Shown here in pieces: positions 18,969 through 53,712 of a DNA stretch of 64,000 nucleotides; position 1 is the first letter of the stretch, and each line of letters begins with the position of its first letter. The DNA is from Candidatus Dojkabacteria bacterium (GTDB lineage Bacteria > Patescibacteriota > Dojkabacteria > SC72). Position numbers and translations under genes: made by a program. The DNA is taken from positions 10,979 through 74,978 of the forward strand of contig DUTP01000006.1 in the NCBI GenBank assembly GCA_012842045.1, read 5' to 3'. The notes beneath the pieces are model-generated. The model was not told the DNA's origin, searched no databases, and saw only the letters and a list, made by a program, of their open reading frames with translations.

Positions 18969-20393
18969 ATGCAACTTCAGTATCTTAAATTAGGTGACCA
19001 AGAAGTTTTTAATGGTCAATTTCTTTTAGCTGTATATAGAATTAGAGGAAAGGAAGGTATTCCCTTAGATGATATTGCAACAGAAGTCGCTGCAGAATCT
19101 TCAACTGGTTCGAATGTAAGAATTAAAGTAGCAACTCCATATTCTGAGAGTATGAATGCTAGGGTATATAGAATAGATGAAGCAAAAAATTTAGTTTGGA
19201 TAGCTTACCCTTGGAGAATTTTCGATAGAGGAGGTAATGTTCAGAATATAATTACTTTTCTTGCTGGTAATGTCTTTGGTATGTCTTCTTTAGAAGAGTG
19301 TAAGCTTCTAGATGTGTATTTCCCACCACAAATGTTAGTTCACTATGAAGGACCAAGTTATACAATCAAAGAGATGAAAGAATATCTTAATATTGATAAT
19401 AGGCCAGTATTAGGAACTATTATAAAACCAAAGATAGGTTTAACATCATCAGAATATGCAGAACTTTGTTATGACTTCTGGAGTGGTGGTGGTGATTTTG
19501 TCAAAAATGATGAACCTCAAGCAGATCAGGACTTCGCACCATTTGATTTTATGGTTAGAGATGTTAGATATGCTATGGATAGAGTTGAAAAGGAAACAGG
19601 TAAGACAAAAGTTCACTCCTTTAATATCTCTTCTGCGGATTATGACACTATGATAGAGAGGGCTGAACTTATAAGGTCTACAATGAAACCAGGGAGTTAT
19701 GCTTTCCTAATCGATGGTATAACTGCAGGTTGGATGGCTGTACAAACAATTAGGAGAAGGTATCCTGATGTATTCTTACACTTCCATAGAGCAGGTCATG
19801 GAGCTTTTACTAGAGAAGAAACACCTTTTGGCTTTACAGTCCCTGTGCTTACTAAATTTGCTAGGCTAGCTGGTGCTTCTGGTATCCATACTGGTACGGC
19901 TGCTGTCGGTAAAATGGCCGGTTCACCTAAAGAAGATATTATGGCTGCAAATCATGCTTTAAGACTTTTTTCTAAAGGAGACTTCTTTAATCAAATATGG
20001 GCAGAGATACCAGAAAAGGATGCTGATTTAGTAAAAGCAATAGAGATGGAAGAAAAAGGAGAAGACTATGAAGATCTTGGTTTGTGGAGAATTACCAAAA
20101 AGACTTGTCCAATAATCTCAGGAGGTCTTAATCCCACTCTAATTGGTGAATTTTTAGACATAATTGGAACTCGAGACTTCATTACAACAATGGGTGGAGG
20201 TGTGCATTCTCATCCAATGGGTACTAAATCAGGAGCAACAGCCGTATTACAAGCATACGAAGCATGGGAGAAGAAAATTCCTCTTGAAGAGTATGCAAAA
20301 GAGAAAGAAGAGTTAAGGGTAGCAATTGATTTCTTTGGGAAAAAGAAAGTGCATGCTCAAAACGAATCTGATGATGACAAGGATATTCACTAG
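18969..20393 (+). CDS. rbcL: Ribulose-1,5-bisphosphate carboxylase large subunit, form II/III (archaeal/CPR-type)
   Basis: Active-site motifs are present: IIKPKIGL (KPK), GGGDFVKNDE (carbamylated Lys), LHFHRAGHGAF, MGGGVHSHP. 474 aa, no small-subunit gene adjacent. Confidence 0.85.
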   Translation: MQLQYLKLGDQEVFNGQFLLAVYRIRGKEGIPLDDIATEVAAESSTGSNVRIKVATPYSESMNARVYRIDEAKNLVWIAYPWRIFDRGGNVQNIITFLAGNVFGMSSLEECKLLDVYFPPQMLVHYEGPSYTIKEMKEYLNIDNRPVLGTIIKPKIGLTSSEYAELCYDFWSGGGDFVKNDEPQADQDFAPFDFMVRDVRYAMDRVEKETGKTKVHSFNISSADYDTMIERAELIRSTMKPGSYAFLIDGITAGWMAVQTIRRRYPDVFLHFHRAGHGAFTREETPFGFTVPVLTKFARLAGASGIHTGTAAVGKMAGSPKEDIMAANHALRLFSKGDFFNQIWAEIPEKDADLVKAIEMEEKGEDYEDLGLWRITKKTCPIISGGLNPTLIGEFLDIIGTRDFITTMGGGVHSHPMGTKSGATAVLQAYEAWEKKIPLEEYAKEKEELRVAIDFFGKKKVHAQNESDDDKDIH

Positions 20394-23253: not shown

Positions 23254-23730
23254 TTAAAGTTGCAAAAACTTCTTTCTAAGAACAATCTTTAACCAATTAT
23301 CTTTCAACCACTGCTCTGACTTTTGTTGCTCATCTAGTAAACCTCTCAAAGCAAGCTCTTTATTCACAATATTACCTTGATGAGGCTTATCAAACTTTTT
23401 TGTTAGTGGAGATTGAAATCCATGAGCATAGTGGCATAGTTCATGTGCGATTGTTGCTCTTAGTACAAACTCAGGAATAACATCATGTTGAAAAAATCTA
23501 GTAAGTGTTATTACTGTAATACTCTTATCATCCTGTACTTCATACTCATCCATCTTATTCTTCAATAAACTCTTTATCTTCGTTCTCTTATTTGCTAGTT
23601 TAATACTTCCTAACTGTCTTGTTGAATATTTTCCAAACTTAATTAAAACAAGATTCTTTCTGGGTATATCTGGAAAATGGTTCTCCCAAAGATCGTACAA
23701 TATATTTTCTAAAAATTCTTCATCTCTCAT
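23254..23730 (-). CDS. Putative zinc metallopeptidase, ImmA/IrrE (M78)-like or SprT-like
   Basis: Single HExxH motif in the context RATIAHELCHYAHGF, which resembles the M78 consensus (..laHElgHlllh). 158 aa, no TM. Confidence 0.45.
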   Translation of the reverse strand: MRDEEFLENILYDLWENHFPDIPRKNLVLIKFGKYSTRQLGSIKLANKRTKIKSLLKNKMDEYEVQDDKSITVITLTRFFQHDVIPEFVLRATIAHELCHYAHGFQSPLTKKFDKPHQGNIVNKELALRGLLDEQQKSEQWLKDNWLKIVLRKKFLQL

Positions 23731-23748: not shown

Positions 23749-25584
23749 ATGCTATTATATCTTATAATGGATACGAAAAAAGGAAAGCAATTTAAGACAT
23801 TACTAAAAGTTCTCAAATTTATTTATGGCAACTATACTGTACTTGCAGTCTCTAGAGATTTTCTCTTTCTCTTTAGTACAGCCGCCGAAATCTATGGAAT
23901 CTCTGTATTAGGTAAATTCATAGATGCCACTACTAAGATACTTTTAGAATGGAACTCTTTTGATTTTAAGAGTTTCCTTACAAGTGATTCTTTTAAATAT
24001 CTCTTTTTAATATTTATCCTTTGGGCTGTCACTCATATATGTAATCAAATAAGAGGGTATCTCTATGTTGTGATATATGAAAAAACTTGGAGTACTACTC
24101 AATCAATGATAATTGGCAAAGTTGCAAACTCTAATCTTCAGGATGTTGAGAAAAAGGATTTTCAAGATAAAGTGGCTTTTGCTCCTGCATATTCGATTGA
24201 AAGGATAATAGATGTTTATGACAACTTCTCTGTGTTAATAAGTAATACCGTTAGGTTAATATCTGCTTTTGTATTGATAACTCAAAGTGTTGGTGTCTCT
24301 GCCCTGCTTCTTGCTCTTTTTGTATTGCCTGAAGCTTTTTTCATTCATGGTGAGAGAAGGGATATAAAGGAGTTTAGAGACAATTCTATTGGAAAACTAA
24401 GGTTTCTTGCATATGTACAAGATCTTGCTTTAACAATTTCAAACTTTTTGGAATTAAGAGTAAATAATATATTTTCTTTTCTTAAGAGAAGATACGATGA
24501 GGAGTATGACGAATATCTAAATAAGTATTTCATTGGACAATACAGTTTTTTCAAAAGCAGAGCTGGTTTAGGTGTTTTTAGTCAATTTTTGAAATATATC
24601 TATGTAGTATATGTACTAGCAATTTCTGTTCTTAAAAAATATTCCTTTGGTCAGTTTAAAGCACTTTTTGATTATGTAGATGTAGCATTTAATAGTACAT
24701 CCAAAATTACTGACTCTGTATCAATAATCATTATCAATCTCGAATACATTGATGAGTTTTTTGATTTGATAGAGTATGAAGGTTTTGGAGATAGGTATCA
24801 GGGTAAGATTAAACTAGGGAAAAACACGCCACTACTTGAGTTTAAGAACTTAAATTTTGCATATCCAGATGACCCTTCTGTTACAGTTCTGAAAAATATA
24901 AGCATGAAAGTAGAACCGGGAGAGAAAATTGCAATCTTAGGTTCTGATGGCTCTGGTAAGAGTACTTTGGTGAAAATTCTTACAGGCTTGTATGGTGTAG
25001 TTGATGGGGGATATTTCTTGGATGGGAATAGTACAAGAGAATTGGCAAGAGGGGAATTGAAAAAAAAGATAGCAGTAGTACTTCAAGAATTCATAGATTA
25101 TCACTTTAGTTTGAAAGAAAATATTGTAATTTCAGGACAGAGGAAAAATGTTGATAATGCTTTGTATGCGAATGTTTCTAAAATTGCTCAGGTCGACAGA
25201 TTCAAGAAGAGTGTTGGTTTAGATGATGCCTCTTTGTTAGGTAAAACTTTTGCCTCTGGAAAGGAACTCTCTCCTGGTTATTGGCAAAGATTGGCTATTA
25301 GTAGGATGCTTTACAGAAACAGACAATTATTCATTATGGATGAACCTTTTACATATATAGATGATGTCTCTGCAGAGAGAATATTAGATGGTATATTAAA
25401 ATTCTTAGGAGAGGAGAGGTCGCTAATATATATTACAAGAAGTATCAGGATGTTGAAGAAGTTTGATAGGATATATTATCTGCATAAGGGTAGTATTGTT
25501 GAATCTGGTAGTTGGGAAGAATTAATAAAAAAGAAAGGTAAGTTGTACAAAGAGTTTTTGTTACAAGATGAATCTATAGAATAA
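23749..25584 (+). CDS. ABC transporter, fused permease/ATP-binding protein (exporter type)
   Basis: N-terminal multi-TM domain. Walker A (LGSDGSGKST), signature-like (LSPGYWQRLAISR), Walker B (LFIMDEPFTYID). Confidence 0.8.
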   Translation: MLLYLIMDTKKGKQFKTLLKVLKFIYGNYTVLAVSRDFLFLFSTAAEIYGISVLGKFIDATTKILLEWNSFDFKSFLTSDSFKYLFLIFILWAVTHICNQIRGYLYVVIYEKTWSTTQSMIIGKVANSNLQDVEKKDFQDKVAFAPAYSIERIIDVYDNFSVLISNTVRLISAFVLITQSVGVSALLLALFVLPEAFFIHGERRDIKEFRDNSIGKLRFLAYVQDLALTISNFLELRVNNIFSFLKRRYDEEYDEYLNKYFIGQYSFFKSRAGLGVFSQFLKYIYVVYVLAISVLKKYSFGQFKALFDYVDVAFNSTSKITDSVSIIIINLEYIDEFFDLIEYEGFGDRYQGKIKLGKNTPLLEFKNLNFAYPDDPSVTVLKNISMKVEPGEKIAILGSDGSGKSTLVKILTGLYGVVDGGYFLDGNSTRELARGELKKKIAVVLQEFIDYHFSLKENIVISGQRKNVDNALYANVSKIAQVDRFKKSVGLDDASLLGKTFASGKELSPGYWQRLAISRMLYRNRQLFIMDEPFTYIDDVSAERILDGILKFLGEERSLIYITRSIRMLKKFDRIYYLHKGSIVESGSWEELIKKKGKLYKEFLLQDESIE

Positions 25585-25601: not shown

Positions 25602-26459
25602 ATGGAAATATTAAATGGAAAAGAGGTTGCGCAGAAGATTTTAGATAGTATTGCTTCAGAAGTAAGTATTTTGAGGCAACAGGGAAAAAGAATTCCAAGA
25701 ATAGATATGATTTTGGTCGGTACTGATTATGCTAGTCAAAAATATGTAAGATTTAAAGAGGTTGTTGCTAAGGAAATTGGGGTTATGGGTTGGGTGCATC
25801 GTATGCCAGAGAGTGTAAATACTTTGGATATAGTTAGCTTAGTTGACACTTTAAATAAGGATAGAACAGTAGATGGCTTTATGATCCAACTTCCACTTCC
25901 TTCTCATGTTGATAAGTCATTAATTCTAAGAACAATAGATCCCAAAAAGGATGTTGATGGTCTTACCCCAACTAATCTAGGGAAACTTTTTCAAAAAGAC
26001 GGTCTAGCTATTCCTCCTGCTACACCATTGGGTATTTTGAAGTTGTTAGATGCATATAATATAAGTTTGTTAGGAAAAAGGGTTGTAATTTTGGGTGCAA
26101 GTACCATTGTAGGTAAACCTCTTGCTGCTATGATGTTGGAGAGAAATGCTACTGTAACTATATGTAATTCGAAAACAGTTGAGATTGCAGATGTTGCTAG
26201 AGAAGCGGATATTCTAGTTAGTGCGACAGGAAAGCCTCTGTTTGTAAAAGGAGATTTTCTAAAAAAAGATTGTATTGTAATTGATGTGGGTTCGAATAAA
26301 CATCCTGAGACTGGTAAATTAGTAGGGGATGTTGATTGGGAATCTGTAAAGGGTATACCTTCTTACATCACACCCGTACCTGGTGGTGTTGGCCCAATGA
26401 CTTTAGCTTGCTTGATGCTTAATTTAATGCATTGTTATAAAAATGAAGGGGAAAAATAG
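25602..26459 (+). CDS. folD: Bifunctional methylene-THF dehydrogenase/methenyl-THF cyclohydrolase
   Basis: [57 protein letters not shown]. Confidence 0.9.
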
Positions 26460-27666
26460 TGTAAAAGACTTAATTGAGGAAGAGAAGAAGAGGCAGAAGG
26501 GTGGTTTGGAGTTGATAGCTTCGGAGAACTATGTTTCTGAGGATGTCTTGGAATGTATGGGTTCTATTCTTACTAATAAATATTCAGAAGGTTATCCTGG
26601 TAAAAGGTATTACAATGGGAATGAATATATTGATCAGATAGAGCTTTTAGCTATTTCAAGAGCTAAGGAACTTTTTGGTGCTGAACATGTTAATGTTCAA
26701 CCTTACTCTGGTTCTCCTGCTAATTTAGCAGTTCATTTTGCTCTTTTAGAAGCTGGTGATAGAACTTTAGGAATGTCTTTAGATGCAGGTGGGCATTTGA
26801 CACATGGTTTTAAGGTTTCAATTTCAGGTAAGTATTATGATTCTGCTAATTATGGTTTAGATGATAAGGGATATATTGATTATGATGCTGTTTTGCGAAT
26901 AGCGAAGGAACATAAACCAAAGTTGATTTGGGCTGGTTTTTCTGCATATTCTAGAATTGTAGATTGGAAGAGATTTAGAGAAATAGCTGATGAGGTTGGT
27001 GCGTATTTTGTTGCTGATATTGCTCATGTTGCAGGTTTGGTAGCTGGTGGTGTTTATCCTTCTCCTGTACCCTTTGCAGATGTTGTTACAACAACTACAC
27101 ATAAGACATTGAGAGGTCCTAGAGGTGCAATGATTCTATGTAAAGAGGATTTTGCTCAGAGAATAGATAAAGCTGTTTTTCCTGGATTACAAGGAGGTCC
27201 GCATAATCATACTATTGCAGGTATAGCTACTGCTCTTGGTGAGGCAAGTACTGATGAGTTTAAAGATTATGCAAAGCAGGTTGTAAAAAATGCTCAAGTG
27301 TTATCTGAAGAGTTAAAGAAATATGGCTATGATATAGTATCAGGAGGTACAGACAATCATCTTTTCTTAATGGATGTAACTTCTGCAGGTTTATCTGGAG
27401 GGGAGGCTGGAAATCTTTTAGAAAAAGCTAATATTACTGTAAACAAGAATGCTATTCCTAATGATACAAGGAAACCTTGGGATCCATCTGGGATTAGAAT
27501 TGGAACTCCTGCTTTAACAACTAGAGGTATGAAGGAGGATGAGATGGTAAAAGTAGCTGAATATATTAACTCTGTACTTAGGAGTAAGGGAGAAGATGAG
27601 GTTCAGAAGATTAAAAAAGAAGTTGAGTCTTTTGCAAATAAATTTAAAATACCTGGAATAAAATAA
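26443..27666 (+). CDS. glyA: Serine hydroxymethyltransferase
   Basis: [20 protein letters not shown]...[17 protein letters not shown]...[14 protein letters not shown] (PLP Lys). Overlaps the folD end by 17 nt. Confidence 0.95.
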
Positions 27667-27667
27667 T

Positions 27668-29263
27668 ATGAAAATGGTCTTTCATAAAAATTTAAATATT
27701 GCTACTGTTAGGTCTAATTCCTCATGGAATAAGTTTGTAGTACATACTCTTTTACAGAACACATCTAGTAAGCAACCTTCAATTAATGCATATTTAGCTG
27801 CAAGATATAGTAGGTCTTCAGACTCAATTTTGGATATAGCTTCAGAAGTTATGGGTAAAGGTGTTGATGCAGCTGAGAGGTTGGAGAAGATTTTTGCAGG
27901 ATATGGGCACAAGTCAGTAGGGGATATGGCAGATCTTTTTGTATGTATTGAAAACATTCCTATGTATATGGCAATGAAACTTTTCTATATGAATTCGGTT
28001 GTTTCTGGTCAGGAGAGGTCTACTAGATATCAAGATTTTTCTAATCCTCAGTTTGTTAGAATTCCAGAAGAGGTTTGTAGTTCTGTGGAAGTAAGGAAGG
28101 AATATGATAGGTTGATTTTAAAACAAATGAATGATTATAGAGAATTGAAGAATCCTACTAGTGAGGCTTTAGCTAAGTTTTTTAAGATTAACGAAGAGAG
28201 TCCCCAAGAAGTATCAGCTCTTAAATCTCGCAGTTTTGATACACTAAGGTATTTGCTTCCTTATGGTCTTGATACGAGTGCTGCATATTTGATGTCGGCA
28301 AGAAATTGGTCTGAGAATATTAGTTATCTTTGTTCTGGTAGTAGTATTGTGGGTGAGGAGGTTTCTTCTTTGCTTCTTAATCTCCTTGGCGATTCTGATT
28401 TGGAAGCTAGGGGGTATATACGAGAAGCAGATGGATTGATAAGACATACAGAGGCAAATTGTTCTAGAGCTACTTCTACGCAGGAGATTTTGGAGTATAT
28501 GGGTAAGAGGTTAGATAGAAAACAAGAATTTGATATTGGTCTGAATGATATGGAGACAGTTAAAGTGAGTTATTCTCCAGAGTTTTCTGAATGTTTAGTC
28601 TCTCATTATGAGGCGTTATTGAATCCTTTAGGTTCAGCGTCGGAATATGAGTTTTCAGAGGAGGATCAGGAGGAGATAGGGGAGATTCTGTTTGAGAATC
28701 ATAATCATCATAATCAATTAGGAAATATTGGTCAGAGTGGAGCTGTTAAGATAGAGGGTTTTAGTTCTCTTGGTGTATTAAAGGATTTGAACAGGCATAG
28801 AAGTTTTGAAAGGTTTATTCCGCTATTTCATGATGAGATAGATATGGATCAGGAGTTAGACAGAAGAAGTGATGAATGCTTCTATCTCTGTAATTATCTA
28901 GACCTTGCTCCTTTGAAATCTTTGAGACAGGAGTATGTTAATAGATTAGTAGAAACATATGATGCAATAAAAGAGTGGAGGCAAAGTGCAAAAAAGAGTA
29001 TGTCTTTGGATGTTTGCAATGAGTTTACAAAATATTTGTTGCCTCATGCTCATGCTACTAGATACATTTTCTATGCATCTTTTGATGATTTACAATATAC
29101 CATAAATCTTAGAGTAAGGAATGGTGGACATATAGCATATAGAACATTGGTTTATGAATGGCTGAGGAAGCTATATGAGAAGGATGCTATTTGGGGAGGA
29201 TTATTGAAAAGAATAATCACTCCATCTGTTAGTGATAAGGGTCAGTTTGTTGATAGATCCTAA
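27668..29263 (+). CDS. ThyX-like (Thy1 family) protein, possible flavin-dependent thymidylate synthase, long two-lobed form. Tentative.
   Basis: The N-terminal half, GHKSVGDMADLFVCIENIPMYMAMKLFYMNSVVSGQERSTRY, aligns to ThyX motif H.SV.EH..FTF.I...SRA...QL.RHR..S...QSQRY but has YMN in place of RHR. The C-terminal half carries an RHR (LNRHRSFERF). It starts 1 nt after glyA. Confidence 0.4.
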   Translation: MKMVFHKNLNIATVRSNSSWNKFVVHTLLQNTSSKQPSINAYLAARYSRSSDSILDIASEVMGKGVDAAERLEKIFAGYGHKSVGDMADLFVCIENIPMYMAMKLFYMNSVVSGQERSTRYQDFSNPQFVRIPEEVCSSVEVRKEYDRLILKQMNDYRELKNPTSEALAKFFKINEESPQEVSALKSRSFDTLRYLLPYGLDTSAAYLMSARNWSENISYLCSGSSIVGEEVSSLLLNLLGDSDLEARGYIREADGLIRHTEANCSRATSTQEILEYMGKRLDRKQEFDIGLNDMETVKVSYSPEFSECLVSHYEALLNPLGSASEYEFSEEDQEEIGEILFENHNHHNQLGNIGQSGAVKIEGFSSLGVLKDLNRHRSFERFIPLFHDEIDMDQELDRRSDECFYLCNYLDLAPLKSLRQEYVNRLVETYDAIKEWRQSAKKSMSLDVCNEFTKYLLPHAHATRYIFYASFDDLQYTINLRVRNGGHIAYRTLVYEWLRKLYEKDAIWGGLLKRIITPSVSDKGQFVDRS

Positions 29264-29274
29264 ATTCCTTACAT

Positions 29275-30900
29275 CTACATTACAGGTGTTGGTGGTGTAG
29301 GAGGAGTATTTAGATTGTCTTGTGTAGGCTGCTGTATAGGTGGTATATTTCCTGAATTGTCTAAGTTGTCTGTAAGTAGAGTTTCTGCTTGTGAAAATGC
29401 ACTTGTGTCTCCAGGAGGGACATTGCCTATCTGTGGAGCTTGAATAGGTTCTTGAGTATTTCCCAAATCAAATATTTGATCTGTTTGTTGATTTGGATTT
29501 TGTGGTACGGTCTCTGCTTGTGGGAAAGCACCTGTGTCTACTGGTGACATATTACCTACTTCCTGAAAATCGGTTACAGGTGGTGGAGTTTGAACGGGTT
29601 CTTGGGTATACCCCAAATCAACGGCTTGATTTGCTTGTTGGTCTGTGTTTTCAATTGGAACTTGTGGCACTATTTCTGGTTGTGAAAATGCACCTGTATC
29701 TATTGGTGGTATATTTGCTACTTCTTGAACATCGGTTACAAGTGGTGGAGTTTGAATAGGTTCTTGAGTATTTCCCAAATCAAATATTTGATCTGTTTGT
29801 TCTACTGTGTTTTCAACTTGCGGTATAATCTCTGGCTGTGGACCTGTTTCTACTTGTGGTGCAACATTGGTATCTAAATTCCCATTACCATCAATAGGTG
29901 ATGTAGAACCAATGTTTGGTAAAGTATCCTCTGTGATATTAGCCTGATAATTGTCAGCGATATCAGATGTCAATCCAGCTGAAAGGGTTGAATTTCCCTC
30001 TGCTATAGATGTGTTTGTTTCTGTATCACTTTTCTCTCTATCTAGAAGTTCTTGCAAATCAGAATTCTCGGAGATAGTATTCTCCTGCGTTGTTGTTTCT
30101 GATGGAGGGGTTACGTCTACTGGTTTAATAATCTCATCTAATGTCTTTTTTGCAGGTGATTCTCCAACTTGATCTTGTAAAGGTTCTGTTGCAGCTTTTG
30201 CTTCAGCATTAACAATTGTAGTTGAAGCTGGAACATCGGCTAATACTACATCGTCTTTCTTCTTTGTAATAGAAAAAACAATTATGCCAACCAGAGAAAC
30301 TCCTGCTACTCCAAGGAGGACATATGCAAGAGTTTTCTTCAAATTACTACTCTCTTCTGTTTTTCCAGTTGTTTCTTTGCCAGTATTAGATATAGGGATA
30401 GGAGTTTCCCCCTCTGTGTCATCTGTTTTCACAAGGTCTTCTTCTCCAGTGTCAGTAGGTGTGTCATCATTGTTAGCTTCGTTTTTACTACCTACATTTA
30501 CAGTCTCACTTATACTTAATCCTCCAATTTGTGACTGTTCTTCTAATACTGTAAAAGTGTACTCGTCAGAAGTTGTACTAAACTCTATCTTTGCGAGGGT
30601 ACCGTCTAGAATGGTGTCTTGTGTCATTGTACATATAATTTCTACAAGGAGCCCATTCGGAGAAGAAGAAAAAGTGCTACAAAAACCATCTCCTTCTTCT
30701 ATATTTGAAATACTTACTCCTTCTGAAACTTCTAAAGCAACTTTAATACTTTTAGTCTTTTCCCCTTTAGTATCGATATTTACTAAGATCTGTTTTTTAT
30801 CTCCTACAGGACTATCCTGAAGTTCTATATTTGCCGCCATAGACGGAATAGGAGTTATTAAAAGTATTAAGAAAGCGTAAAAAAGAGAAACAAGTTTCAT
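29275..30900 (-). CDS. Surface protein: signal peptide, ectodomain, central TM, C-terminal three 53-aa tandem repeats and a PT tail
   Basis: 541 aa. N-terminus MKLVSLFYAFLILLITPIPSMA. TM LAYVLLGVAGVSLVGIIVFSIT followed by KKKDD. Repeat unit DQIFDLGNTQEPIQTPPLVTDVQEVANIPPIDTGAFSQPEIVPQV. Confidence 0.55.
   Translation of the reverse strand: MKLVSLFYAFLILLITPIPSMAANIELQDSPVGDKKQILVNIDTKGEKTKSIKVALEVSEGVSISNIEEGDGFCSTFSSSPNGLLVEIICTMTQDTILDGTLAKIEFSTTSDEYTFTVLEEQSQIGGLSISETVNVGSKNEANNDDTPTDTGEEDLVKTDDTEGETPIPISNTGKETTGKTEESSNLKKTLAYVLLGVAGVSLVGIIVFSITKKKDDVVLADVPASTTIVNAEAKAATEPLQDQVGESPAKKTLDEIIKPVDVTPPSETTTQENTISENSDLQELLDREKSDTETNTSIAEGNSTLSAGLTSDIADNYQANITEDTLPNIGSTSPIDGNGNLDTNVAPQVETGPQPEIIPQVENTVEQTDQIFDLGNTQEPIQTPPLVTDVQEVANIPPIDTGAFSQPEIVPQVPIENTDQQANQAVDLGYTQEPVQTPPPVTDFQEVGNMSPVDTGAFPQAETVPQNPNQQTDQIFDLGNTQEPIQAPQIGNVPPGDTSAFSQAETLLTDNLDNSGNIPPIQQPTQDNLNTPPTPPTPVM
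29390..29860. repeat. Three tandem in-frame repeats of about 157 bp inside the 29275-30900 gene
   Basis: ttcttgagtatttcccaaatcaaatatttgatctgtttg occurs at about 29447 and 29762, with a diverged copy at about 29604. Confidence 0.7.
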
Positions 30901-45940: not shown

Positions 45941-47398
45941 ATGAATAAAGGAAGAAAAAATAAAAAAGCATTGATACTTCTAATAGTCTTGTGCCTTTTT
46001 TCATTTTTTGTTGTAAAAGCTACAAAAAAGATGGAAAGAGATTTAGAGCCGAAAAAGGAAATAACAAGTGAAGTTTTGGAGTGTTCTACATGTGGGGAAT
46101 CTAGTAGTTTAGAAGAAAACTTGGAAGAGGATTTAACAGAAAATATTTTGTTAGTAGATAAAGCGGATACAATTGATATTACAGATATGGTATTGGGTAC
46201 GGATTCGGGTGGGGGGAGAATCTCTTGTAGGGGCTTAGAAAAAAACCCCTCTCTTAAATCCTTAAGGTATGTGTGTTCTACTGAGAATGCAGGTAATGTG
46301 TCGTTTATTCTTCCTCCTGAAATTAGAGATTCTGGGGGAGCAGCTGTACTGACTAGGGGGTTGACAGAATTTAAGATTACGAAAATAACCTATCCTCTCG
46401 CTTTTGGTCTTGGTCAATATAGGTATATAGATAGTAACAAACAGATTAGGAAAAAATCTCCTGATTATAGGTCCAATGGTCAGCAAATAGATACAGCATA
46501 TGTGTCGAAAACATTGGCACCTAATGAAGTAGATGACTTTGAAGAAAATATTTCTGGTACTGTTAAAAAAGCTTTTGAAGTAGAGGCTAAAGTTGATCTT
46601 AAATCAACAGCTAATACAAAGGATGAAAGTGGAAATTCTAGAATGTATATTGTTGAGAATATCGAAGGAGATCCTGAGTGTATGTTTAAAGATCAAAAAT
46701 GCTCAACTATACCTGAATTTGCAGTTTCAGATTACAACATCGGGAAATCGAATCGTATAGCTTACTATGCTGGCTATGACAGTGGGCAAATTCCTGGTGG
46801 TGATGAGATACTAAATGAAATTGATATGGATGATGTTCCTGTAGAGAAGGAGTGTTTAGTTGAAGGAGAAGACTACAAGGCAATAAGTAAAGGTAAAAAA
46901 ATTCTTTGCAACGATACTGCTTTATCTGTTCTTTGGGCTACTTTTAAGGAGTCTTTTTCTTCTAGTGAGATTGAAGCTTGTCGTCCAATGGGTTATTGTG
47001 AAAGAGCAAAAAAGGTTGCGATAAAGATGACTCCTATATTTGGCGAACCAGATGAATGTACAAAAGACTTATGTGCAAATGCATTTCTCTCTCAAACATA
47101 TAGGCAAACGCTTTCTCCTGCAGAATCTATAGAGACGAGTACAGTAAATCCTGATAAACGAAAAAGTATAATGTTTTTTGTTGCTACAGATTGCTCAGTT
47201 TTGGTGGATTTAAAGACTGTAGATGTATATTGTCTTTGGGATGCATCTCCAACACTTTTAAACTATAATCTACAAGCAAAGGACAAGTCTCCTAATCAGG
47301 AAGACTTTCCTTGGAACTTTAATCGTTATTGGGCTAGTGTGTCAGGAGCAATAAACTGGTCTGATGAGAATGGTTATAAAATAGGAAACGAACATTAA
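45941..47398 (+). CDS. Cys-rich membrane-anchored extracellular protein, unknown function
   Basis: 485 aa, N-terminal TM (ALILLIVLCLFSFFVV), about 20 Cys spread over the ectodomain. Confidence 0.5.
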   Translation: MNKGRKNKKALILLIVLCLFSFFVVKATKKMERDLEPKKEITSEVLECSTCGESSSLEENLEEDLTENILLVDKADTIDITDMVLGTDSGGGRISCRGLEKNPSLKSLRYVCSTENAGNVSFILPPEIRDSGGAAVLTRGLTEFKITKITYPLAFGLGQYRYIDSNKQIRKKSPDYRSNGQQIDTAYVSKTLAPNEVDDFEENISGTVKKAFEVEAKVDLKSTANTKDESGNSRMYIVENIEGDPECMFKDQKCSTIPEFAVSDYNIGKSNRIAYYAGYDSGQIPGGDEILNEIDMDDVPVEKECLVEGEDYKAISKGKKILCNDTALSVLWATFKESFSSSEIEACRPMGYCERAKKVAIKMTPIFGEPDECTKDLCANAFLSQTYRQTLSPAESIETSTVNPDKRKSIMFFVATDCSVLVDLKTVDVYCLWDASPTLLNYNLQAKDKSPNQEDFPWNFNRYWASVSGAINWSDENGYKIGNEH

Positions 47399-47414
47399 AT
47401 TAATATCTTTTAAA

Positions 47415-48746
47415 ATGAAAAAAACATTAAACATTCTTCTCTTTATAATTCTTCTCTTTGCTTTTTCTCCATTTGCAATATTTGCTCAAGAAGAAGAGGA
47501 AGCTGAAGAAAGTGAAAAGATAGATAAAAATATAGTATATATGGAATCTGTAGAACTCTCAGACACTCTTAGTGAGAACGAAACAAAAGCAGAAAATGTA
47601 GAGAGAGGTTCCATGAAAACTATAGCAGGGATGTCTCTGAGTCTCTTTATGTCGGCTTGTCCAGATTGTTTCGAAGGAGAACTACCAGAAGAATTAGAAG
47701 GGAGAGGTTTAACAAATATAGTAGATGGGCAAATAGCTAAACTGTTTAATAATCAACCGCGAGTAGATCTAGTTGCTCACCTAGCAGATGAATGGGTGCC
47801 AGGGTACAAGCATGTAGGTGATAGTGTATATGCAGGTGGTTTTGGTGACTTAGAAGAAACAAAGATAGCAGGTCTTTGGACTAAAACTAGAAATATAGCG
47901 TATCTTGGTTATGTGGTAATTATGATTATTGTAGGCTTTATGATAATGTTCAGAAACAAGATAGGAGGACAGGTAATGGTTACAGTTAGTAACTCCATTC
48001 CTAGGATTGTTGTTTCCCTCATTCTGGTTACATTTAGTTTTGGGATAATCGGGTTGATTATAGACTTTGGTGGTGTAGTAAGATCCATTATTGATAGTAT
48101 TTACTTTGGTGGAGAGTCAGGTATAGATGTTCATAATCCTTTCTTTCTAGTAGGAGGGTTTCTTGGGAGAAATGAAGGTACAGCAATAACCAGTGCTTTG
48201 GGAATTGCTGGTATAGTTATTATGATTGTTAAAACCTTCAACCCTCTTGGTCTCTTGTTATCACTTATGGGGCTAGTCGTTCTATGTGTAGTACTTTGGG
48301 GTGCTATAAAACTTTGGATAACACTCCTAAAATCTTACTTTGGAATGCTAATTAATATTGTAACAGCTCCACTTGCGATTCTTTTTGGTTCTTTACCAGG
48401 CAATGAGGCTTCTTTGTTTAATGTATTTAAATCTGCTCTTAGAAATGTTCTTGCATTTCCACTTGCTTATGCCATTGTTAATCTTCCATATGTATTAGAA
48501 GATCAAGGTGTCGTATTGTCTTTTCCTGAAACTTTAGTCCATGCATCGACAGATGATACAACTTTCCTACCTAATCTCTTAATTGAGATAGCCAAAGTAA
48601 TGGCAATATATGCAGCAGCTGCAGCTCCAGAAATATTAAAAGCAATTATCCCTGCTACAGGATCTAAAGCAGGAGAGGAGATTGGCAAAGCATTGAAGGA
48701 GAATGTGTCGAAAACACCGTTAATAGGGGGACTATTTAAGTCTTAG
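47415..48746 (+). CDS. Polytopic membrane protein with a cleavable signal peptide, VirB6/TrbL-like topology. Tentative.
   Basis: Signal peptide MKKTLNILLFIILLFAFSPFAIFAQ. Acidic periplasmic segment of about 150 aa. 5-6 Gly/small-residue-rich TM helices. Short C-terminal tail. Confidence 0.45.
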   Translation: MKKTLNILLFIILLFAFSPFAIFAQEEEEAEESEKIDKNIVYMESVELSDTLSENETKAENVERGSMKTIAGMSLSLFMSACPDCFEGELPEELEGRGLTNIVDGQIAKLFNNQPRVDLVAHLADEWVPGYKHVGDSVYAGGFGDLEETKIAGLWTKTRNIAYLGYVVIMIIVGFMIMFRNKIGGQVMVTVSNSIPRIVVSLILVTFSFGIIGLIIDFGGVVRSIIDSIYFGGESGIDVHNPFFLVGGFLGRNEGTAITSALGIAGIVIMIVKTFNPLGLLLSLMGLVVLCVVLWGAIKLWITLLKSYFGMLINIVTAPLAILFGSLPGNEASLFNVFKSALRNVLAFPLAYAIVNLPYVLEDQGVVLSFPETLVHASTDDTTFLPNLLIEIAKVMAIYAAAAAPEILKAIIPATGSKAGEEIGKALKENVSKTPLIGGLFKS

Positions 48747-48777
48747 TTTAGGTTATAAAAACATTTAGGGAAACAAT

Positions 48778-51411
48778 ATGTCAAAGGATCAGTATCAGGG
48801 GGCATTAGATTCTATCTTCAATTTCATCTTTACAGAATCTAAGAAGCCTGCTAACAAGGTGAAACCGGTAAAAGTTACAGGTGTTGATGGTAGCAATGAA
48901 TTTATGGATGCAGTTGCAGCCGTGTTGGAGAACCCCTTACTTTTTGTTAATGATACTACCAAAAATGCATTTGAAGGTTTAATTAATCCAGACATAGCAA
49001 CTGTGGACCTAGGTCCTAATGAGAAAGTCAAGCTATCTCTGAAAGATGTTGGTAGTGTGTTAAAAGGAGATACCTCTTTTATAGATAAACAGCTTAAGAA
49101 ACTAGAAGCTAATCGTAAAAAAGGAACCCTAGAATGGGCAGGAGAAGAACTCTCGAATATAGTGGCAACAGCATGGGCTAAAGAACATGGTCTTGATATT
49201 ACAACCCGAGATGCCCTCATGAATATGTCTAAATCGGCAGATGCAGGCGGTCTTAGAGACTTAAATACCTCAGCTCTCAGTAAAGCCTTAGCAGAAGAAT
49301 TACTGGCCCGAGGAGTAAATTTCGATAATATGCAAGAAAGTGCTTTCAAGGCAGCCTTTGGAGAGAAAGAAGGAGGTCTCATCTACAGCTCTTTACAGAA
49401 GGTAGTAAAAGAATACAAAGAAGCACAAACCACTGGAAGAAGTACGAAGGAGATTTTAGATTCAATAGATAATAATCATTACACAATCCTCTATCCAGTC
49501 TTTCAGAGTAAATACATGGAAGAAAAGGCGGAGGAGGAAGAAGAGAAAGGAGATGAAGAGAAAGCCAAGTACTATCAACAAGCACAAAGAGCGATAGATA
49601 TATATACACAGGGCTCTCTTAGAGATAGATACCTCCAAAGAATGCAATTTAAACTTCAACAAGAAGAAAGAGAGATACGTGATTTATTAGCATCCGGCAA
49701 ACCAGTAAGCAGAGAGAGAATTAATAATATGAGAAGAGAAGCTAGTCGAATGCGGGCAGAGATCCGTATCTTAAAAGGTCATGATCTGGCTAGGAGATTT
49801 GGTAAATGGGAAGGACATTACAAATCAGTTAAAGGTTTGTATGAACAAACAACAGGAGGTCAACTCCTCCCTGCAATTCTAACAGGAGACTTCTTTGACC
49901 CTAGAAAGAATACAGTATGGGGTCTTCAACCTACTCAAGAGATGGATTTCAAGTATGGTAATTTTCTTGTAGATGATAAAGATGGTTTTATTAAGATTAA
50001 AATAGCTAAAATATATGATGAAGTAGAGGTAGATGAATCAGGCAAGGTTATAGAAGGTAAAGGTGTTAGAGGTCCTCTAGGAAGAAAGGTTAAAACCCTA
50101 AGAGTCCCCTCCAGAAGCCTAAGCAAAGCATACAATCAAATGATGACTGACATTTACTATCTAACTCCAGCAGTTCTTGTTAGAACTTTAGGTACAGGTG
50201 AAAGATTTGCATACAAGGCACATAGGCAAGTAGAAAACTTCTTGGATAAATATAAACATCTGTTTCCTAATCTAGACTTAGAAAAACTCTTCGGTCCTGA
50301 TGGTGAAAACTACCTTGTTACATTCTCCAACCTAGAAGATTTTGCTAAATTAGAAGAGTTCTTTAGGAAAAATAAAAGACTTAGAACACTGGCATATAAC
50401 TTTGGGGTTCTTGATAGGACTAAGAGAAAAATAACAAAATTTTTACGGGAAAAAATAGATCATTGGTTTGGAGCATTAAGAGGTTCTCTAGGTAATTGGT
50501 TACTTAAGAGAATACAGGGTCCAGGGGCTAAAAACCTGATAGAGCAATGGATGAAGAAAGGGGCATTTAAAGTACTGATAGAAGGTATAAAGATGAGTAT
50601 TAAGACAGCTCTTGGTATTACAACTTCTACATGGGGACTTATTGTTAGCTTTGTAATAGATAGGTTTGCTGATATAGCACGTAGCATAGGTGAGAAGGCA
50701 CTAAGTCCCATATTAAAAATTATTTTTACAGTGATAATCTTTACATTGGTGGGAATAATAGGTCTTGGAACCTTGTCTCTCACCTCTTTATATATGAATA
50801 CGAGAAATATGTATTCTCATGTAGCACCAAAGGATGTGATTGTAGGAGATGCTGATTTAGATATAGCATCTTCCTCTCCTTTGCCTTGGGATTGGGATGG
50901 TGACCTTGATGATATACCTGTTCCTGAAGATTGTAATCAAATATTTGAGTTTGCCGCTGGTATCTTAGGTATTTTTGATGTTCCTTTACAATGTACATCA
51001 TATTCGGATAGTACTTGGTGTATAGCTACAAGGAAAGCTATTCAGTGTGATTGTAGTAAGGTGTGTTCTTCGAATCCTCAAGCTGTTTTTTGGCTTGCTA
51101 CACACGAATATATTCATATCTTACAATATAGAGGACCTATAGGTTATGGGCCAAATCCCAAAATATCAGAATGGGGTGCTGACTATTTATCTAAGAATGG
51201 AGGTGCCTATATGTGTCAGTCTGAGTGGGGTTATCTGAGAGCTACAGAAATAGGGGAAGCTATTATGAATGCATATCCTGGTATTTGTACAAGAGCAGAA
51301 CTCAGATTTATAGCACTCCGACAAAAAGCATCTGGACCTTGTTATCGGTTACTTGATAGAGGGATCTCTTATTGTAAACTTGGTGATTGGATTGTTTATG
51401 GAAGTGGTTAA
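48778..51411 (+). CDS. Giant 877-aa protein: soluble N-terminal region with coiled-coil, TM segment(s), C-terminal Cys-rich domain with an HExxH (zincin-like) motif
   Basis: No signal peptide. Coiled-coil and charged region (EEKAEEEEEKGDEEKAKYYQQAQRAID...RMRAEIRILKG). Strong TM (ILKIIFTVIIFTLVGIIGLGTLSL). C-terminal approximately 200 aa carry about 14 Cys and the motif FWLATHEYIHILQY. The 5' portion looks locally GC-richer, and a 195-aa antisense ORF runs at 48795-49382. Confidence 0.55.
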   Translation: MSKDQYQGALDSIFNFIFTESKKPANKVKPVKVTGVDGSNEFMDAVAAVLENPLLFVNDTTKNAFEGLINPDIATVDLGPNEKVKLSLKDVGSVLKGDTSFIDKQLKKLEANRKKGTLEWAGEELSNIVATAWAKEHGLDITTRDALMNMSKSADAGGLRDLNTSALSKALAEELLARGVNFDNMQESAFKAAFGEKEGGLIYSSLQKVVKEYKEAQTTGRSTKEILDSIDNNHYTILYPVFQSKYMEEKAEEEEEKGDEEKAKYYQQAQRAIDIYTQGSLRDRYLQRMQFKLQQEEREIRDLLASGKPVSRERINNMRREASRMRAEIRILKGHDLARRFGKWEGHYKSVKGLYEQTTGGQLLPAILTGDFFDPRKNTVWGLQPTQEMDFKYGNFLVDDKDGFIKIKIAKIYDEVEVDESGKVIEGKGVRGPLGRKVKTLRVPSRSLSKAYNQMMTDIYYLTPAVLVRTLGTGERFAYKAHRQVENFLDKYKHLFPNLDLEKLFGPDGENYLVTFSNLEDFAKLEEFFRKNKRLRTLAYNFGVLDRTKRKITKFLREKIDHWFGALRGSLGNWLLKRIQGPGAKNLIEQWMKKGAFKVLIEGIKMSIKTALGITTSTWGLIVSFVIDRFADIARSIGEKALSPILKIIFTVIIFTLVGIIGLGTLSLTSLYMNTRNMYSHVAPKDVIVGDADLDIASSSPLPWDWDGDLDDIPVPEDCNQIFEFAAGILGIFDVPLQCTSYSDSTWCIATRKAIQCDCSKVCSSNPQAVFWLATHEYIHILQYRGPIGYGPNPKISEWGADYLSKNGGAYMCQSEWGYLRATEIGEAIMNAYPGICTRAELRFIALRQKASGPCYRLLDRGISYCKLGDWIVYGSG

Positions 51412-52405
51412 AAATTTTTTTAAAAAATATAAGAAGTATATTCTAATAGGTTTAGCTGTTGGTTTAACTGTTGGACTGATTGCTTTTTGGGAAGTTAAAT
51501 CTCGAAGTGAAATCGGAGCCGACCCCAAAAATAAAGAGCTTCTCTCTCCTTTTTGGGACTTATTAGATCATCCAACCTTGTCACTACCTTCTGATATTGT
51601 AATATATACGGAAGAAGAGATTCCTGTGTATGACATTCTGCCCTACAAAGGGAATGTTTTAAAGATAATTCAGAAGTTTGATGAAAATATAGAGATAACA
51701 TCTGACACTTCCAACCTTATAGAAACAGAAAACATCTTAGCCTCATATACTGAAAATGTGGGAGTTTTAGAGGTATATTTAAAAACCCATGCTTTCACAT
51801 TTACAGTGAAAAATAACCAGGATGTTTCTAATCTAATTAAAGGTATCTTTGGGTATGAAACAAATCAAGAAAGTATTGTCATGAAAAGGATAGAAGAAAA
51901 TATTATTTTTCAAGGGAGATACTTAGTAGAAAGCTCTTCGAAGGAAGAGTTTGGTTCTATGCAGATAGACTCTTACGCCTACAGAATTGAAACAGAAAAA
52001 GATGGTAGTGTTAAACGAATAGTTATATTGCTATACAATAACAACAGTATTAATACGTATTCAGTTTATCCTCCTGTAAGTATTAGGGAAGGACTTAAAA
52101 AAGGAAATGCCTACTATACAAAACCCCTATATCAGGATTTTGATAAAGAGGATTTTTCGGGGTTGGAATTTCTTAAATATTTTTCCAGAACAAAATCGGT
52201 TTCTGTTAGGAAGACTAGTAAAGTATATATTTTACCAGACTACAATTATTCCTATCTGTACCCAACATATGTTATAGAAGGGGATGCTAAATTAGAAGAC
52301 TTTCTTGGTAATTCTCATATTGGGGAATCGTTAATATATGTATTGGCAATAGATTCGCAATATCTCAAAAAGAGTGTAGAAGAACTCGAGCCTATCTCGA
52401 ATTAA
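51353..52405 (+). CDS. Membrane-anchored protein of unknown function
   Basis: 350 aa. N-terminal TM (ILIGLAVGLTVGLIAFW). It overlaps the upstream gene, so the likely start is the internal MEVVKN Met at about 51398. Confidence 0.45.
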   Translation: MIEGSLIVNLVIGLFMEVVKNFFKKYKKYILIGLAVGLTVGLIAFWEVKSRSEIGADPKNKELLSPFWDLLDHPTLSLPSDIVIYTEEEIPVYDILPYKGNVLKIIQKFDENIEITSDTSNLIETENILASYTENVGVLEVYLKTHAFTFTVKNNQDVSNLIKGIFGYETNQESIVMKRIEENIIFQGRYLVESSSKEEFGSMQIDSYAYRIETEKDGSVKRIVILLYNNNSINTYSVYPPVSIREGLKKGNAYYTKPLYQDFDKEDFSGLEFLKYFSRTKSVSVRKTSKVYILPDYNYSYLYPTYVIEGDAKLEDFLGNSHIGESLIYVLAIDSQYLKKSVEELEPISN

Positions 52406-52536
52406 ACAAAATTTCGGAAAAAGACAGAGAATATACAGTACCAGCATTGGTTTTTCTGAATGCTATAGATCCGAAATACATTGAAACTGAAACAGAAAAG
52501 TAGAAAAATAAAAACATACAGTGTACAATCAAGTAT

Positions 52537-53712
52537 ATGAAATTATTTAAAAGAACAATAATTACTCTCTTACTATTTCTGCTCTCCACAACAGGTGCTT
52601 TCGCTCTTACGTCTTTTTCTGCTACAACTCTTCAATTTGACACGAGCCTAACTGAAGGAGCTGATCAGGTATATACAACTCCGGAGAAAATATATATATC
52701 ACAAATTACAACAAAGTCAGAACAGCTATCTCAAGACCCTGAACTTTGGGTTAAATCCCTCTACTATTACTATATCACTAGACTCTACATTCCTGACTTA
52801 CCATACACATATCTGCTTGATGAGAATGGAATAATATATCAGGGAAAAACAGGGGGACTAGGGGCTAATTTACAGGAAAATGATCTTGATAATGCTGTTT
52901 TAGTGGGGTACTTATCGAACACTCCTACTCTGACGGTAAGAGCAGAAACCTCTTTGATAGAGATGGTTGGTGAGATAGCTCATGCGTGGGGTATCTCAAC
53001 AGTTAAACCTGTAAAAGTAAATATTATAAAGGAAGAAAATAAAATGTCTGGGATAAAGATAACGGATGCTCCTTTTGAATTTACAACAGCTATTAACAAC
53101 CTTTTCAAGGATTGGAAGGGATACACAGAAGAAAACCTTAACTACAAAGCTACGATAGAGGAGGTCATTGCGCCTATGGAGTCTGAAATAGGTAGTAGAG
53201 TGACAGTAAAAGTGAAAATTACAAATGAGAATGACTTTCCATGGTTTACCGATAGAGATCCAATATATGTTTCTACAAAAGATGGAAAGGAAAGTTCCCT
53301 TGCTATAAATCAACTCTGGCCTAGTTTTAGTAAACCAGTAGAGATATCTGATAGAAGTATAAAGCCAAAAGAGACATTTGAAATTGGCTTCGAGATTGAA
53401 GCAAAAGTTCTTACAGGAGAAGTCTTCCAGACCTTTGTTTTACAAAAAGTAGATGGGGAGCCATTTGAAGGCTCAGAGTTTGAGGTGAAGTTCGATGTTG
53501 TGAAAGGTGATAAGACTCTTGTACAGGTAGTATCCCCAGAGTTTGGGTTTGTAAATGTTCGTAAATGTAGATGGGCAAGTTGTGAGATTTTAGATAGCCC
53601 AAAGGAAGGCACCATATTCATTCTCTTGGGTGAAGAAGCAGGTTGGTACAAGATACAATATGCACCTGGAGTAGAAGGGTGGGCAATGCTTAGATATTTT
53701 AAGAAAATATAA
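52537..53712 (+). CDS. Secreted protein with a degenerate PGRP/amidase_2-like domain and a C-terminal SH3b domain
   Basis: Signal peptide MKLFKRTIITLLLFLLSTTGAFA. YTYLLDENGIIYQGKTGGLGANLQENDLDNAVLVGYLSN...PTLTVRAETSLIEMVGEIAHAWGI resembles the amidase_2 core, but the Zn-ligand His residues are not evident. The C-terminus GFVNVRKCRWASCEILDSPKEGTIFILLGEEAGWYKIQ is SH3b-like. Confidence 0.35.
   Translation: MKLFKRTIITLLLFLLSTTGAFALTSFSATTLQFDTSLTEGADQVYTTPEKIYISQITTKSEQLSQDPELWVKSLYYYYITRLYIPDLPYTYLLDENGIIYQGKTGGLGANLQENDLDNAVLVGYLSNTPTLTVRAETSLIEMVGEIAHAWGISTVKPVKVNIIKEENKMSGIKITDAPFEFTTAINNLFKDWKGYTEENLNYKATIEEVIAPMESEIGSRVTVKVKITNENDFPWFTDRDPIYVSTKDGKESSLAINQLWPSFSKPVEISDRSIKPKETFEIGFEIEAKVLTGEVFQTFVLQKVDGEPFEGSEFEVKFDVVKGDKTLVQVVSPEFGFVNVRKCRWASCEILDSPKEGTIFILLGEEAGWYKIQYAPGVEGWAMLRYFKKI

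Follow-up and report, generated by a model that had tools for sequence, protein, structure and literature searches.

A long, two-lobe ThyX-like protein encoded next to folD and glyA in a Candidatus Dojkabacteria bacterium: a probable thymidylate synthase with catalytic residues divided between fused lobes

The question raised by this locus is whether a ThyX-like protein of double length, in which neither half carries a full set of catalytic residues, can still be a thymidylate synthase. The protein is encoded in a 64,000-nucleotide stretch of DNA from a Candidatus Dojkabacteria bacterium (contig DUTP01000006.1 of assembly GCA_012842045.1, positions 10,979 to 74,978 of the forward strand). This whole stretch is called the window, and all coordinates refer to it unless another locus is named. 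The gene is located as follows:

27668-29263, forward strand: long two-lobe thyX, 531 amino acids (aa), ATG start at 27668

The reading favoured here, to which we give a probability of about 0.7, is that the product is a flavin-dependent thymidylate synthase (ThyX, or FDTS) made of two fused and anciently diverged lobes that divide the catalytic residues between them. A first-pass annotation of this DNA, made from the letters alone, had suggested a tandem-duplicated, pseudo-dimeric ThyX acting as a thymidylate synthase. The analysis supports that suggestion: both halves belong to Thy1, the model of the C-terminal half matches ThyX, the full-length model is confident, and the gene context is one of one-carbon and deoxyuridine monophosphate (dUMP) supply.

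Analysis of the protein with the Pfam model Thy1 (PF02511) gave 77.5 bits over two stretches. A scan with this model had been proposed as a check, and when each half was scanned separately both passed the gathering cut-off of 24.8 bits: the N-terminal half (residues 1-288) scored 54.3 bits, with residues 28-221 matching model positions 2-165, and the C-terminal half (residues 289-531) scored 27.5 bits, with residues 360-504 matching model positions 61-187. A single-sequence phmmer search of PDB sequences with the 531-aa protein gave no match, and a profile of its close family (A1) gave only a weak one, of the C half to Mycobacterium tuberculosis ThyX. With neither query was a full-length long ThyX found among PDB sequences. 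The two halves, compared with each other by local hhalign, showed no significant similarity (E = 0.039, probability 1.3%). The internal duplication is evident only through the Thy1 match of each half and not by direct self-similarity, and the duplication or fusion is considered old because the halves are no longer detectably alike.

The long tandem ThyX family is marked by a length of about 460-640 aa and two Thy1 lobes, with GH-S, S-x-R-Y/F, D-x-x-R and (S/N)-A-R in the N lobe and D-x-x-R-H-R and L-R in the C lobe. The window protein has every one of these residues. The two peptides quoted in the first-pass annotation are exact, HKSVGDMADLFVCIENIPMYMAMKLFYMNSVVSGQERSTRY being residues 81-121 and LNRHRSFERF residues 374-383.

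A full-length AlphaFold2 monomer model, built on 30 homologs, is confident including the packing between the lobes (predicted local distance difference test, pLDDT, 85.7; predicted template modelling score, pTM, 0.89), and both halves show the same succession of secondary-structure elements. Compared with the PDB by Foldseek, this model matched only ThyX among the matches listed (probability 1.00, TMt 0.5-0.57). The C half was also modelled separately because its Thy1 score was marginal. For this model (pLDDT 75.9), PDB matches at E <= 0.001 numbered 145; the best 50 were without exception ThyX, over about 230 of 243 residues and with a template modelling (TM) score of about 0.5-0.6. Regarding these models, each lobe is predicted to have the ThyX fold, and the protein can be divided as follows:

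27668-28402, forward strand: N lobe, residues 1-245, predicted ThyX fold
28403-28561, forward strand: inter-lobe linker and helical insert, residues 246-298
28562-29260, forward strand: C lobe, residues 299-531, predicted complete ThyX fold

In the full-length model, the linker is coil from 241 to 264, helical from 265 to 279 and again coil up to 298, and no other part of the alignments is less conserved.

How two such lobes could form a site becomes clearer from the canonical enzyme, in which the active site is formed by three subunits (PMC6514825). As described for the solved M. tuberculosis and Helicobacter pylori ThyX, subunit A contributes the RHR motif, which binds the phosphates, ribityl and flavin of flavin adenine dinucleotide (FAD), as well as M. 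tuberculosis Arg95 and Arg199 on dUMP; subunit B contributes Ser71 and Arg190 on the FAD phosphates; and subunit C contributes Arg87, Ser105, Arg107 and the Tyr108 lid on dUMP (PMC6514825). To place these residues in the long protein, half-profiles were aligned to Thermotoga maritima TM0449 by HMMER and by hhalign, and the two methods agree. TM0449 numbering can be used because the reference sequence is identical to PDB 1kq4_A. The first-pass annotation had proposed aligning both halves separately to characterised ThyX proteins; the T. maritima mapping is consistent, and the M. tuberculosis positions R190 and R199 are concordant with it, since direct profile alignment to the M. tuberculosis enzyme pairs D473 with Arg190 and R482 with Arg199. 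The mapped positions, with T. maritima equivalents, are:

27908-27916, forward strand: H81-K82-S83 in the N lobe, equivalent to H53/T55 (H81/S83) and, through the motif, to the position of M. tuberculosis Ser71; not conserved in the C lobe
27986-27997, forward strand: Y107-M108-N109-S110 in the N lobe, degenerate site opposite canonical R78-H79-R80
28019-28030, forward strand: S118-T119-R120-Y121 in the N lobe, equivalent to S88-G89-R90-Y91, the dUMP-binding loop and Tyr lid; the C lobe has a shortened loop with no Ser opposite S88/R90/Y91
28238-28249, forward strand: D191-T-L-R194 in the N lobe, equivalent to E144...R147; E452/K455 in the C lobe
28295-28303, forward strand: S210-A211-R212 in the N lobe, equivalent to N163-A164-R165 and, at R212, to M. 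tuberculosis Arg190; D473 in the C lobe at R165
28328-28330, forward strand: L221 in the N lobe, hydrophobic residue at the canonical R174 position
28793-28801, forward strand: R376-H377-R378 in the C lobe, equivalent to R78-H79-R80 and the sole RHR of the protein
29111-29113, forward strand: R482 in the C lobe, equivalent to R174 and M. tuberculosis R199, which contacts uracil
29255-29257, forward strand: R530, invariant Arg in the C-terminal tail QF(V/I)DRS, with no canonical counterpart

These positions bear out the claims that the N half has no RHR and that the second lobe carries one, which occurs once in the protein. The more specific statement that RHR is replaced by YMN stands only in part: there is indeed no Arg or His at this site, but the alignments pair R78, H79 and R80 with Y107, N109 and S110, and M108 is a one-residue insertion in both the HMMER and the hhalign alignment. 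The contiguous signature RHRxxSxxxxSxR is not found within one domain and is complete only across both lobes. Equivalents of R78, H79, R80, S88, R90, Y91, R147, R165 and R174 are all present, split between the lobes. The C lobe keeps A-role residues only (R376-H377-R378 and R482), and the N lobe keeps B- and C-role residues only (H81, S83 and R212; S118, R120 and Y121; D191 and R194). Judged from sequence, the losses of the two lobes thus appear to be complementary.

Conservation across the family follows the same division. It was assessed in an alignment of 47 diverse long ThyX proteins (A2) that are 23-50% identical to the window protein. A second set was formed by 10 sequences outside profile building, among them those of phage Ma-LMM01, a Microcoleus phage and Terriglobus albidus, and it also covers Tumebacillus, Sulfobacillus, Bdellovibrionota and others. 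The complementary pattern recurs in these 10 sequences, two of which come from cyanophages and others from the cultured Terriglobus, Tumebacillus and Sulfobacillus. In the N lobe, S118, R120, D191 and R194 are each found in 47/47 sequences of A2, the Y121 position is Y or F in 47/47, H81 and S83 are each present in 46/47, and R212 in 43/47. In the C lobe, R376 and R482 reach 47/47, H377 44/47, and R378 44/47 with K in the other 3. Among further sequences, H81, S83, S-x-R-Y/F, RHR and R482 were each found in 11/11 and R212 in 10/11. Each lost position is variable or hydrophobic in the opposite lobe (A2, n = 47): the degenerate RHR columns of the N lobe vary (Y/N/H/S and others, T/G/N/S and others, S/P/A and others), and the L221 position is L, F or M in 42/47.

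Other positions are conserved in this family and have no counterpart in canonical ThyX. R188 and the pair S48-R49 are family-specific invariants of this kind. The C-terminal tail QFVDRS (residues 526-531, window 29246-29260) is strongly conserved, in A1 as well, and its R530 is present in 47/47 sequences of A2. R382 is also conserved across the long ThyX family.

With A-role residues on the C lobe and B- and C-role residues on the N lobe, and given the D2 symmetry of the canonical tetramer, we infer a dimer with two sites. The 531-aa chains would pair and form a pseudo-D2 "N2C2" particle in imitation of the ThyX tetramer. A complete site would consist of one C lobe and both N lobes, so that the particle would hold two FAD/dUMP sites instead of four. 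In a D2 tetramer ABCD, the sites would be built, in role order, as (A,B,C), (B,A,D), (C,D,A) and (D,C,B). With C lobes in the places of A and D and N lobes in those of B and C, sites 1 and 4 would be complete and sites 2 and 3 would lack RHR and R174; the twofold axis relating sites 1 and 4 would be the true symmetry axis of the fused-chain dimer. FAD binding and catalysis by the 531-aa protein are likewise inferred, and the usual chemistry would apply: reduced nicotinamide adenine dinucleotide phosphate (NADPH) would reduce FAD, and the methylene group of 5,10-methylene-tetrahydrofolate (CH2-THF) would pass via flavin N5 to C5 of dUMP, giving deoxythymidine monophosphate (dTMP) and tetrahydrofolate (THF). 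The two-site pseudo-tetramer, which is drawn from conservation and symmetry, is the least directly supported step of the favoured reading.

An arrangement with both lobes active, and hence four sites, was also considered and rejected. RHR and R174 are missing from the N lobe, as are S88, R147 and R165 from the C lobe, and the lost positions are not conserved.

The long architecture is not rare, and most of its members are already annotated as ThyX. In the databases, 293 close relatives of the window protein were found, almost all of them 531 aa long and from Candidatus Dojkabacteria, Microgenomates and other Patescibacteria; their sources call them 'FAD-dependent thymidylate synthase' or 'ThyX'. 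When 1.84 billion cluster representatives were searched exhaustively with a profile, 1,723 matched at E <= 0.001, and the best 150 of these are nearly all 500-640 aa long and match the profile over its full length in a single stretch. The A2 profile, used in another large protein search, gave mostly Dojkabacteria and other Patescibacteria. For a scan of GTDB, A2 was too diverse as a seed and an intermediate alignment (A3) was used instead; the long form was found in at least 590 GTDB species genomes, with loci in Patescibacteria, Bdellovibrionota, Acidobacteriota, Bacillota, Chloroflexota and Actinomycetota. Named carriers include Terriglobus albidus DSM 26559 (Acidobacteriota) and Tumebacillus flagellatus and Sulfobacillus (Bacillota), and the form is common in Acidobacteria. 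Moreover, gp020 of phage Ma-LMM01 (491 aa, 'thymidylate synthase') matches the full model (E = 3.9e-30, TM 0.77/0.83), and long ThyX also occurs in related Microcystis and Microcoleus phages and in a Tunturiibacter jumbo phage.

No description of a tandem or fused ThyX architecture was found in the open-access literature that was searched, including a 2018 review, a 2010 lateral-transfer study, a 2023 Asgard study and a 2023 amoeba study; most subscription-journal papers are outside this scope, and the negative carries little weight. The two-lobe architecture and its division of roles are not a new kind of system, although they are possibly under-described. A broader proposal, which we make only tentatively, is that long ThyX could be a distinct, ancient and widespread class of obligate pseudo-heterotetramers with two sites, whose division of labour would be new to the literature and to structural work.

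The surroundings of the gene also bear on its function. The genes just upstream are:

23749-25584, forward strand: ABC transporter, fused permease and ATPase, 611 aa (Pfam ABC_tran, 91 bits)
25602-26459, forward strand: folD, bifunctional methylene-THF dehydrogenase / methenyl-THF cyclohydrolase, 285 aa, stop TAG
26443-27666, forward strand: glyA, serine hydroxymethyltransferase (SHMT), 407 aa, stop TAA

FolD matches the Pfam models THF_DHG_CYH_C (198 bits) and THF_DHG_CYH (111 bits) and scores about 300 bits with the NCBIfam FolD models, under their equivalog cut-offs. GlyA reaches 563 bits with Pfam SHMT and 607 bits with NCBIfam NF000586 (cut-off 335). The junctions are as the first-pass annotation had described them: folD and glyA overlap, sharing 17 nucleotides (nt), and the thyX ATG follows the glyA stop after a single T at 27667. 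The ABC transporter gene ends 17 nt before folD and is possibly the first gene of the folD-glyA-thyX transcription unit. A promoter and terminator scan gave no convincing signal between it and folD, with fewer matches than in shuffled controls, and provided no operon boundaries. A homolog of the transporter also lies directly upstream of folD in two related loci, L081 and L082, the latter being the closest relative (83% identity), and the order ABC transporter-folD-glyA-thyX was found in 15/19 Dojkabacteria-type loci. A link of its substrate to folate or nucleoside transport is a guess.

The same Dojkabacteria-type ABC-folD-glyA-thyX operon, with 59-69% protein identity to the window, is present in several GTDB records (L001, L002, L005, L006, L010-L012, L016, L018 and L019) titled 'uncultured Candidatus Saccharibacteria bacterium'. 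The taxon labels given by the submitters look generic or wrong.

Concerning the supply of substrates, GlyA produces the CH2-THF used by ThyX, and FolD interconverts the one-carbon forms of THF. On the nucleotide side, dcd (deoxycytidine triphosphate deaminase) adjoins the long thyX in 41/81 loci across phyla. It lies directly downstream of thyX in most Dojkabacteria (e.g. L081) and upstream in another Patescibacteria metagenome-assembled genome (MAG) and in many Acidobacteriota. In a Terriglobia MAG locus (L025, 4889-6141), an open reading frame (ORF) with dUTPase-type motifs, recognised by eye, stands between dcd and thyX; dcd is on the forward strand, the dUTPase-like ORF is divergently oriented, and both are directly upstream of the long thyX. 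Because the thyX call made mechanically for this locus (start 5605) overlaps that dUTPase-like ORF, translation of thyX probably begins close to 5990 instead. The first-pass annotation had argued that the genomic context favours a thymidylate-synthase role, and this agrees with the one-carbon genes folD and glyA found here and with dcd and dut in related loci.

As for another source of thymidylate, the 64-kb window yielded no second Thy1 ORF, nor a thyA-like ORF when it was searched with an unverified Escherichia coli ThyA sequence. In 80 related loci, the surrounding 6 kb or so likewise gave no additional Thy1 ORF and, with this ThyA query, no thyA-like ORF. Apart from the genes above, the window holds housekeeping genes and has no dut, tmk, tdk, nrd or folA. 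The neighbours in the window are folD, glyA, the ABC transporter, rpsO, pnp and groESL, without a nucleoside-antibiotic cluster. Acidobacteria, in which the long form is common, are listed as ThyX-only, with ThyX in 6/6 and ThyA in 0/6 (PMC5954106). Very probably, this Dojkabacteria-type bacterium of the Candidate Phyla Radiation (CPR) makes its own dTMP from a compact folD-glyA-thyX unit.

In place of dcd, the window has a convergent gene at 29275-30900 on the reverse strand (9635-11260 in L082). Its repeat-rich 541-aa product has a signal-peptide-like N terminus, a predicted membrane segment and Thr/Pro/Gln-rich internal repeats, and no Pfam match.

Several observations weigh against the favoured reading. 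The NCBIfam equivalog TIGR02170 gives 36.4 bits with the window protein against a cut-off of 87.9; the long ThyX is homologous to the proteins of this curated canonical model and lies outside it. The equivalence of S83 with M. tuberculosis Ser71 comes through the motif position of T. maritima T55 and not from direct alignment. Past a 6-residue deletion, hhalign places R382-F383 opposite R90-Y91, and the C lobe may therefore keep part of the C-role loop. The model is of a monomer, so the N2C2 geometry rests on the symmetry argument together with conservation. Furthermore, two 531-aa family members that are 57-58% identical to the window protein, P0109 and P0110, have no RHR and yet are full-length. 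Many catalytic residues are gone in them (RHR changed to SFR or RQS, R482 to G, H81 to Q or Y, R194 to G or K), although P0109 (L081, 6001-7596) lies inside an intact ABC-folD-glyA-thyX-dcd operon. They could be decaying enzymes or ones with a new role, and family membership alone is therefore no guarantee of activity. Finally, the window and L082 have no adjacent dcd, there being none anywhere in the 64 kb, and in this genome the thyA search covered the window only, so that a thyA elsewhere in the genome is possible.

The protein could be a ThyX-derived enzyme with a changed substrate, comparable to PolB, that would methylate uridine monophosphate (UMP), deoxycytidine monophosphate (dCMP) or another pyrimidine nucleotide. 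Altered substrate binding had been the other option of the first-pass annotation. The high divergence of the protein from canonical ThyX, seen in the single-sequence search of the PDB and in the score below the TIGR02170 cut-off, is in line with this, as are the invariants without canonical counterpart (S48/R49, R188, R530) and the existence of ThyX paralogs of relaxed specificity (PMC5954106). However, every mappable dUMP-contacting residue is found in either the N or the C lobe, and these residues (R78, S88, R90, R147 and R174 equivalents) are nearly invariant; the neighbours are housekeeping genes (folD, glyA, dcd, dut) and not a biosynthetic cluster; no other thymidylate synthase was found in the window with Thy1 and the unverified ThyA query; and the long form occurs across Acidobacteria, a phylum scored as ThyX-only. 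With the contacts to dUMP preserved and housekeeping genes around, the analysis does not support altered substrate binding, and we regard a changed substrate as unlikely.

A different doubt concerns the assembly and not the reaction. The protein could be a genuine thymidylate synthase that works without a ThyX-like pseudo-tetramer, as a single chain or a differently packed dimer, in which R188, R382 or the R530 tail would stand in for the third subunit. The compact monomer model with its high pTM would agree with this, and so would the invariant family-specific arginines and R382, which is conserved and may align to R90. Nevertheless, B-role (S83, R212) and C-role (S118, R120, Y121) residues are on the same lobe, and canonically these roles belong to two subunits; two N lobes per site, and thus at least a dimer of chains, are therefore expected, which makes this alternative rather improbable. 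The product could also be a catalytically dead or decaying ThyX remnant in a cell that obtains thymidine by salvage, a strategy ascribed to many CPR bacteria of reduced genome for other nutrients. A full set of catalytic residues is indeed missing from each lobe, in P0109 and P0110 the loss extends to RHR and other residues, and the window has no dcd. Against this, the window protein keeps every residue of one complete composite site, and these residues are invariant across 23-50% identity and several phyla, which points to strong purifying selection; in addition, thyX is tightly coupled to glyA by the 1-nt spacer. A remnant is accordingly very improbable, and a two-lobe flavin-dependent thymidylate synthase remains the preferred reading.

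Further features were noted elsewhere in the window. At 18969-20393 on the forward strand, between infB and groES, lies a RuBisCO large-subunit homolog of 474 aa, which matches Pfam RuBisCO_large with 290 bits and also the N-terminal domain. It is found at the same position in L082 and could correspond to the form II/III-type enzyme described from CPR bacteria. An ORF of 158 aa at 23254-23730 on the reverse strand has no Pfam match and shows a HELCH (HExxH-like) motif. It adjoins a gene with a helix-turn-helix domain, is conserved in L081 and L082, and may encode a small zinc metalloprotease. At 45941-53712 on the forward strand, five large ORFs (485, 443, 877, 350 and 391 aa) without a Pfam match at E <= 1e-5 come after a protein of 671 aa that carries fibronectin-III and purple-acid-phosphatase N-terminal domains.

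A compact folD-glyA-thyX unit bears on how far organisms with reduced genomes depend on a host for DNA precursors. The long ThyX family would also be a natural case in which a homo-oligomer has become a fused pseudo-hetero-oligomer, each copy keeping part of a shared site. ThyX is an antibacterial target, and drug work uses the T. maritima, M. tuberculosis and PBCV-1 enzymes; compared with these, two asymmetric sites and family-specific invariants such as R188 and R530 would alter the landscape for inhibitor binding. If the chlamydial ThyX belongs to the long class, this class would include an antibacterial target that is already pursued.

Compared with canonical ThyX (T. maritima TM0449, 1O26; M. 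tuberculosis Rv2754c, 2AF6 and 3GWC; H. pylori, 3N3Y), the long protein shares the Pfam Thy1 domain, the same predicted fold in each lobe, the same set of FAD- and dUMP-contacting residues once both lobes are pooled, and metabolic partners nearby (SHMT here, DCD or Dut in related loci). Canonical enzymes, in contrast, are chains of about 220-250 aa that form a homotetramer with four identical active sites, and each chain has the entire RHRxxSxxxxSxR, whereas here S-x-R-Y belongs to the N lobe and RHR to the C lobe. The two lobes are fused in 531 aa, two complete sites per four lobes are predicted, and the similarity is too low for detection with a single sequence. Other long ThyX proteins (Ma-LMM01 gp020 and those of Terriglobus albidus, Tumebacillus flagellatus, Sulfobacillus and Bryobacteraceae) have the two-lobe architecture and an identical complementary pattern, but they are only 23-50% identical to the window protein, and their lengths and linkers vary. 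The linkage to folD and glyA is specific to the Dojkabacteria lineage, while that to dcd or dut is more general.

The ThyX of Chlamydia trachomatis (CT632) is presumably a chain of about 529 aa, a length at which it may share the tandem architecture. It is an active FDTS in an NADPH-oxidation assay (PMC3498832), and chlamydial ThyX was reported as too divergent for inclusion in ThyX phylogenies (PMC6171736). Among the structural matches there are other non-standard ThyX proteins, Thermus thermophilus Thy1 (6J61) and Corynebacterium glutamicum ThyX (3FNN, 3GE9). Unlike the window protein, each of them has a single ThyX domain, to which the T. thermophilus protein adds an unrelated C-terminal domain. 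PolB of Streptomyces polyoxin biosynthesis is likewise a divergent homolog of ThyX. This neofunctionalised paralog methylates both UMP and dUMP (PMC5954106), and its gene belongs to a nucleoside-antibiotic pathway, whereas the long thyX described here is part of a housekeeping one-carbon operon.

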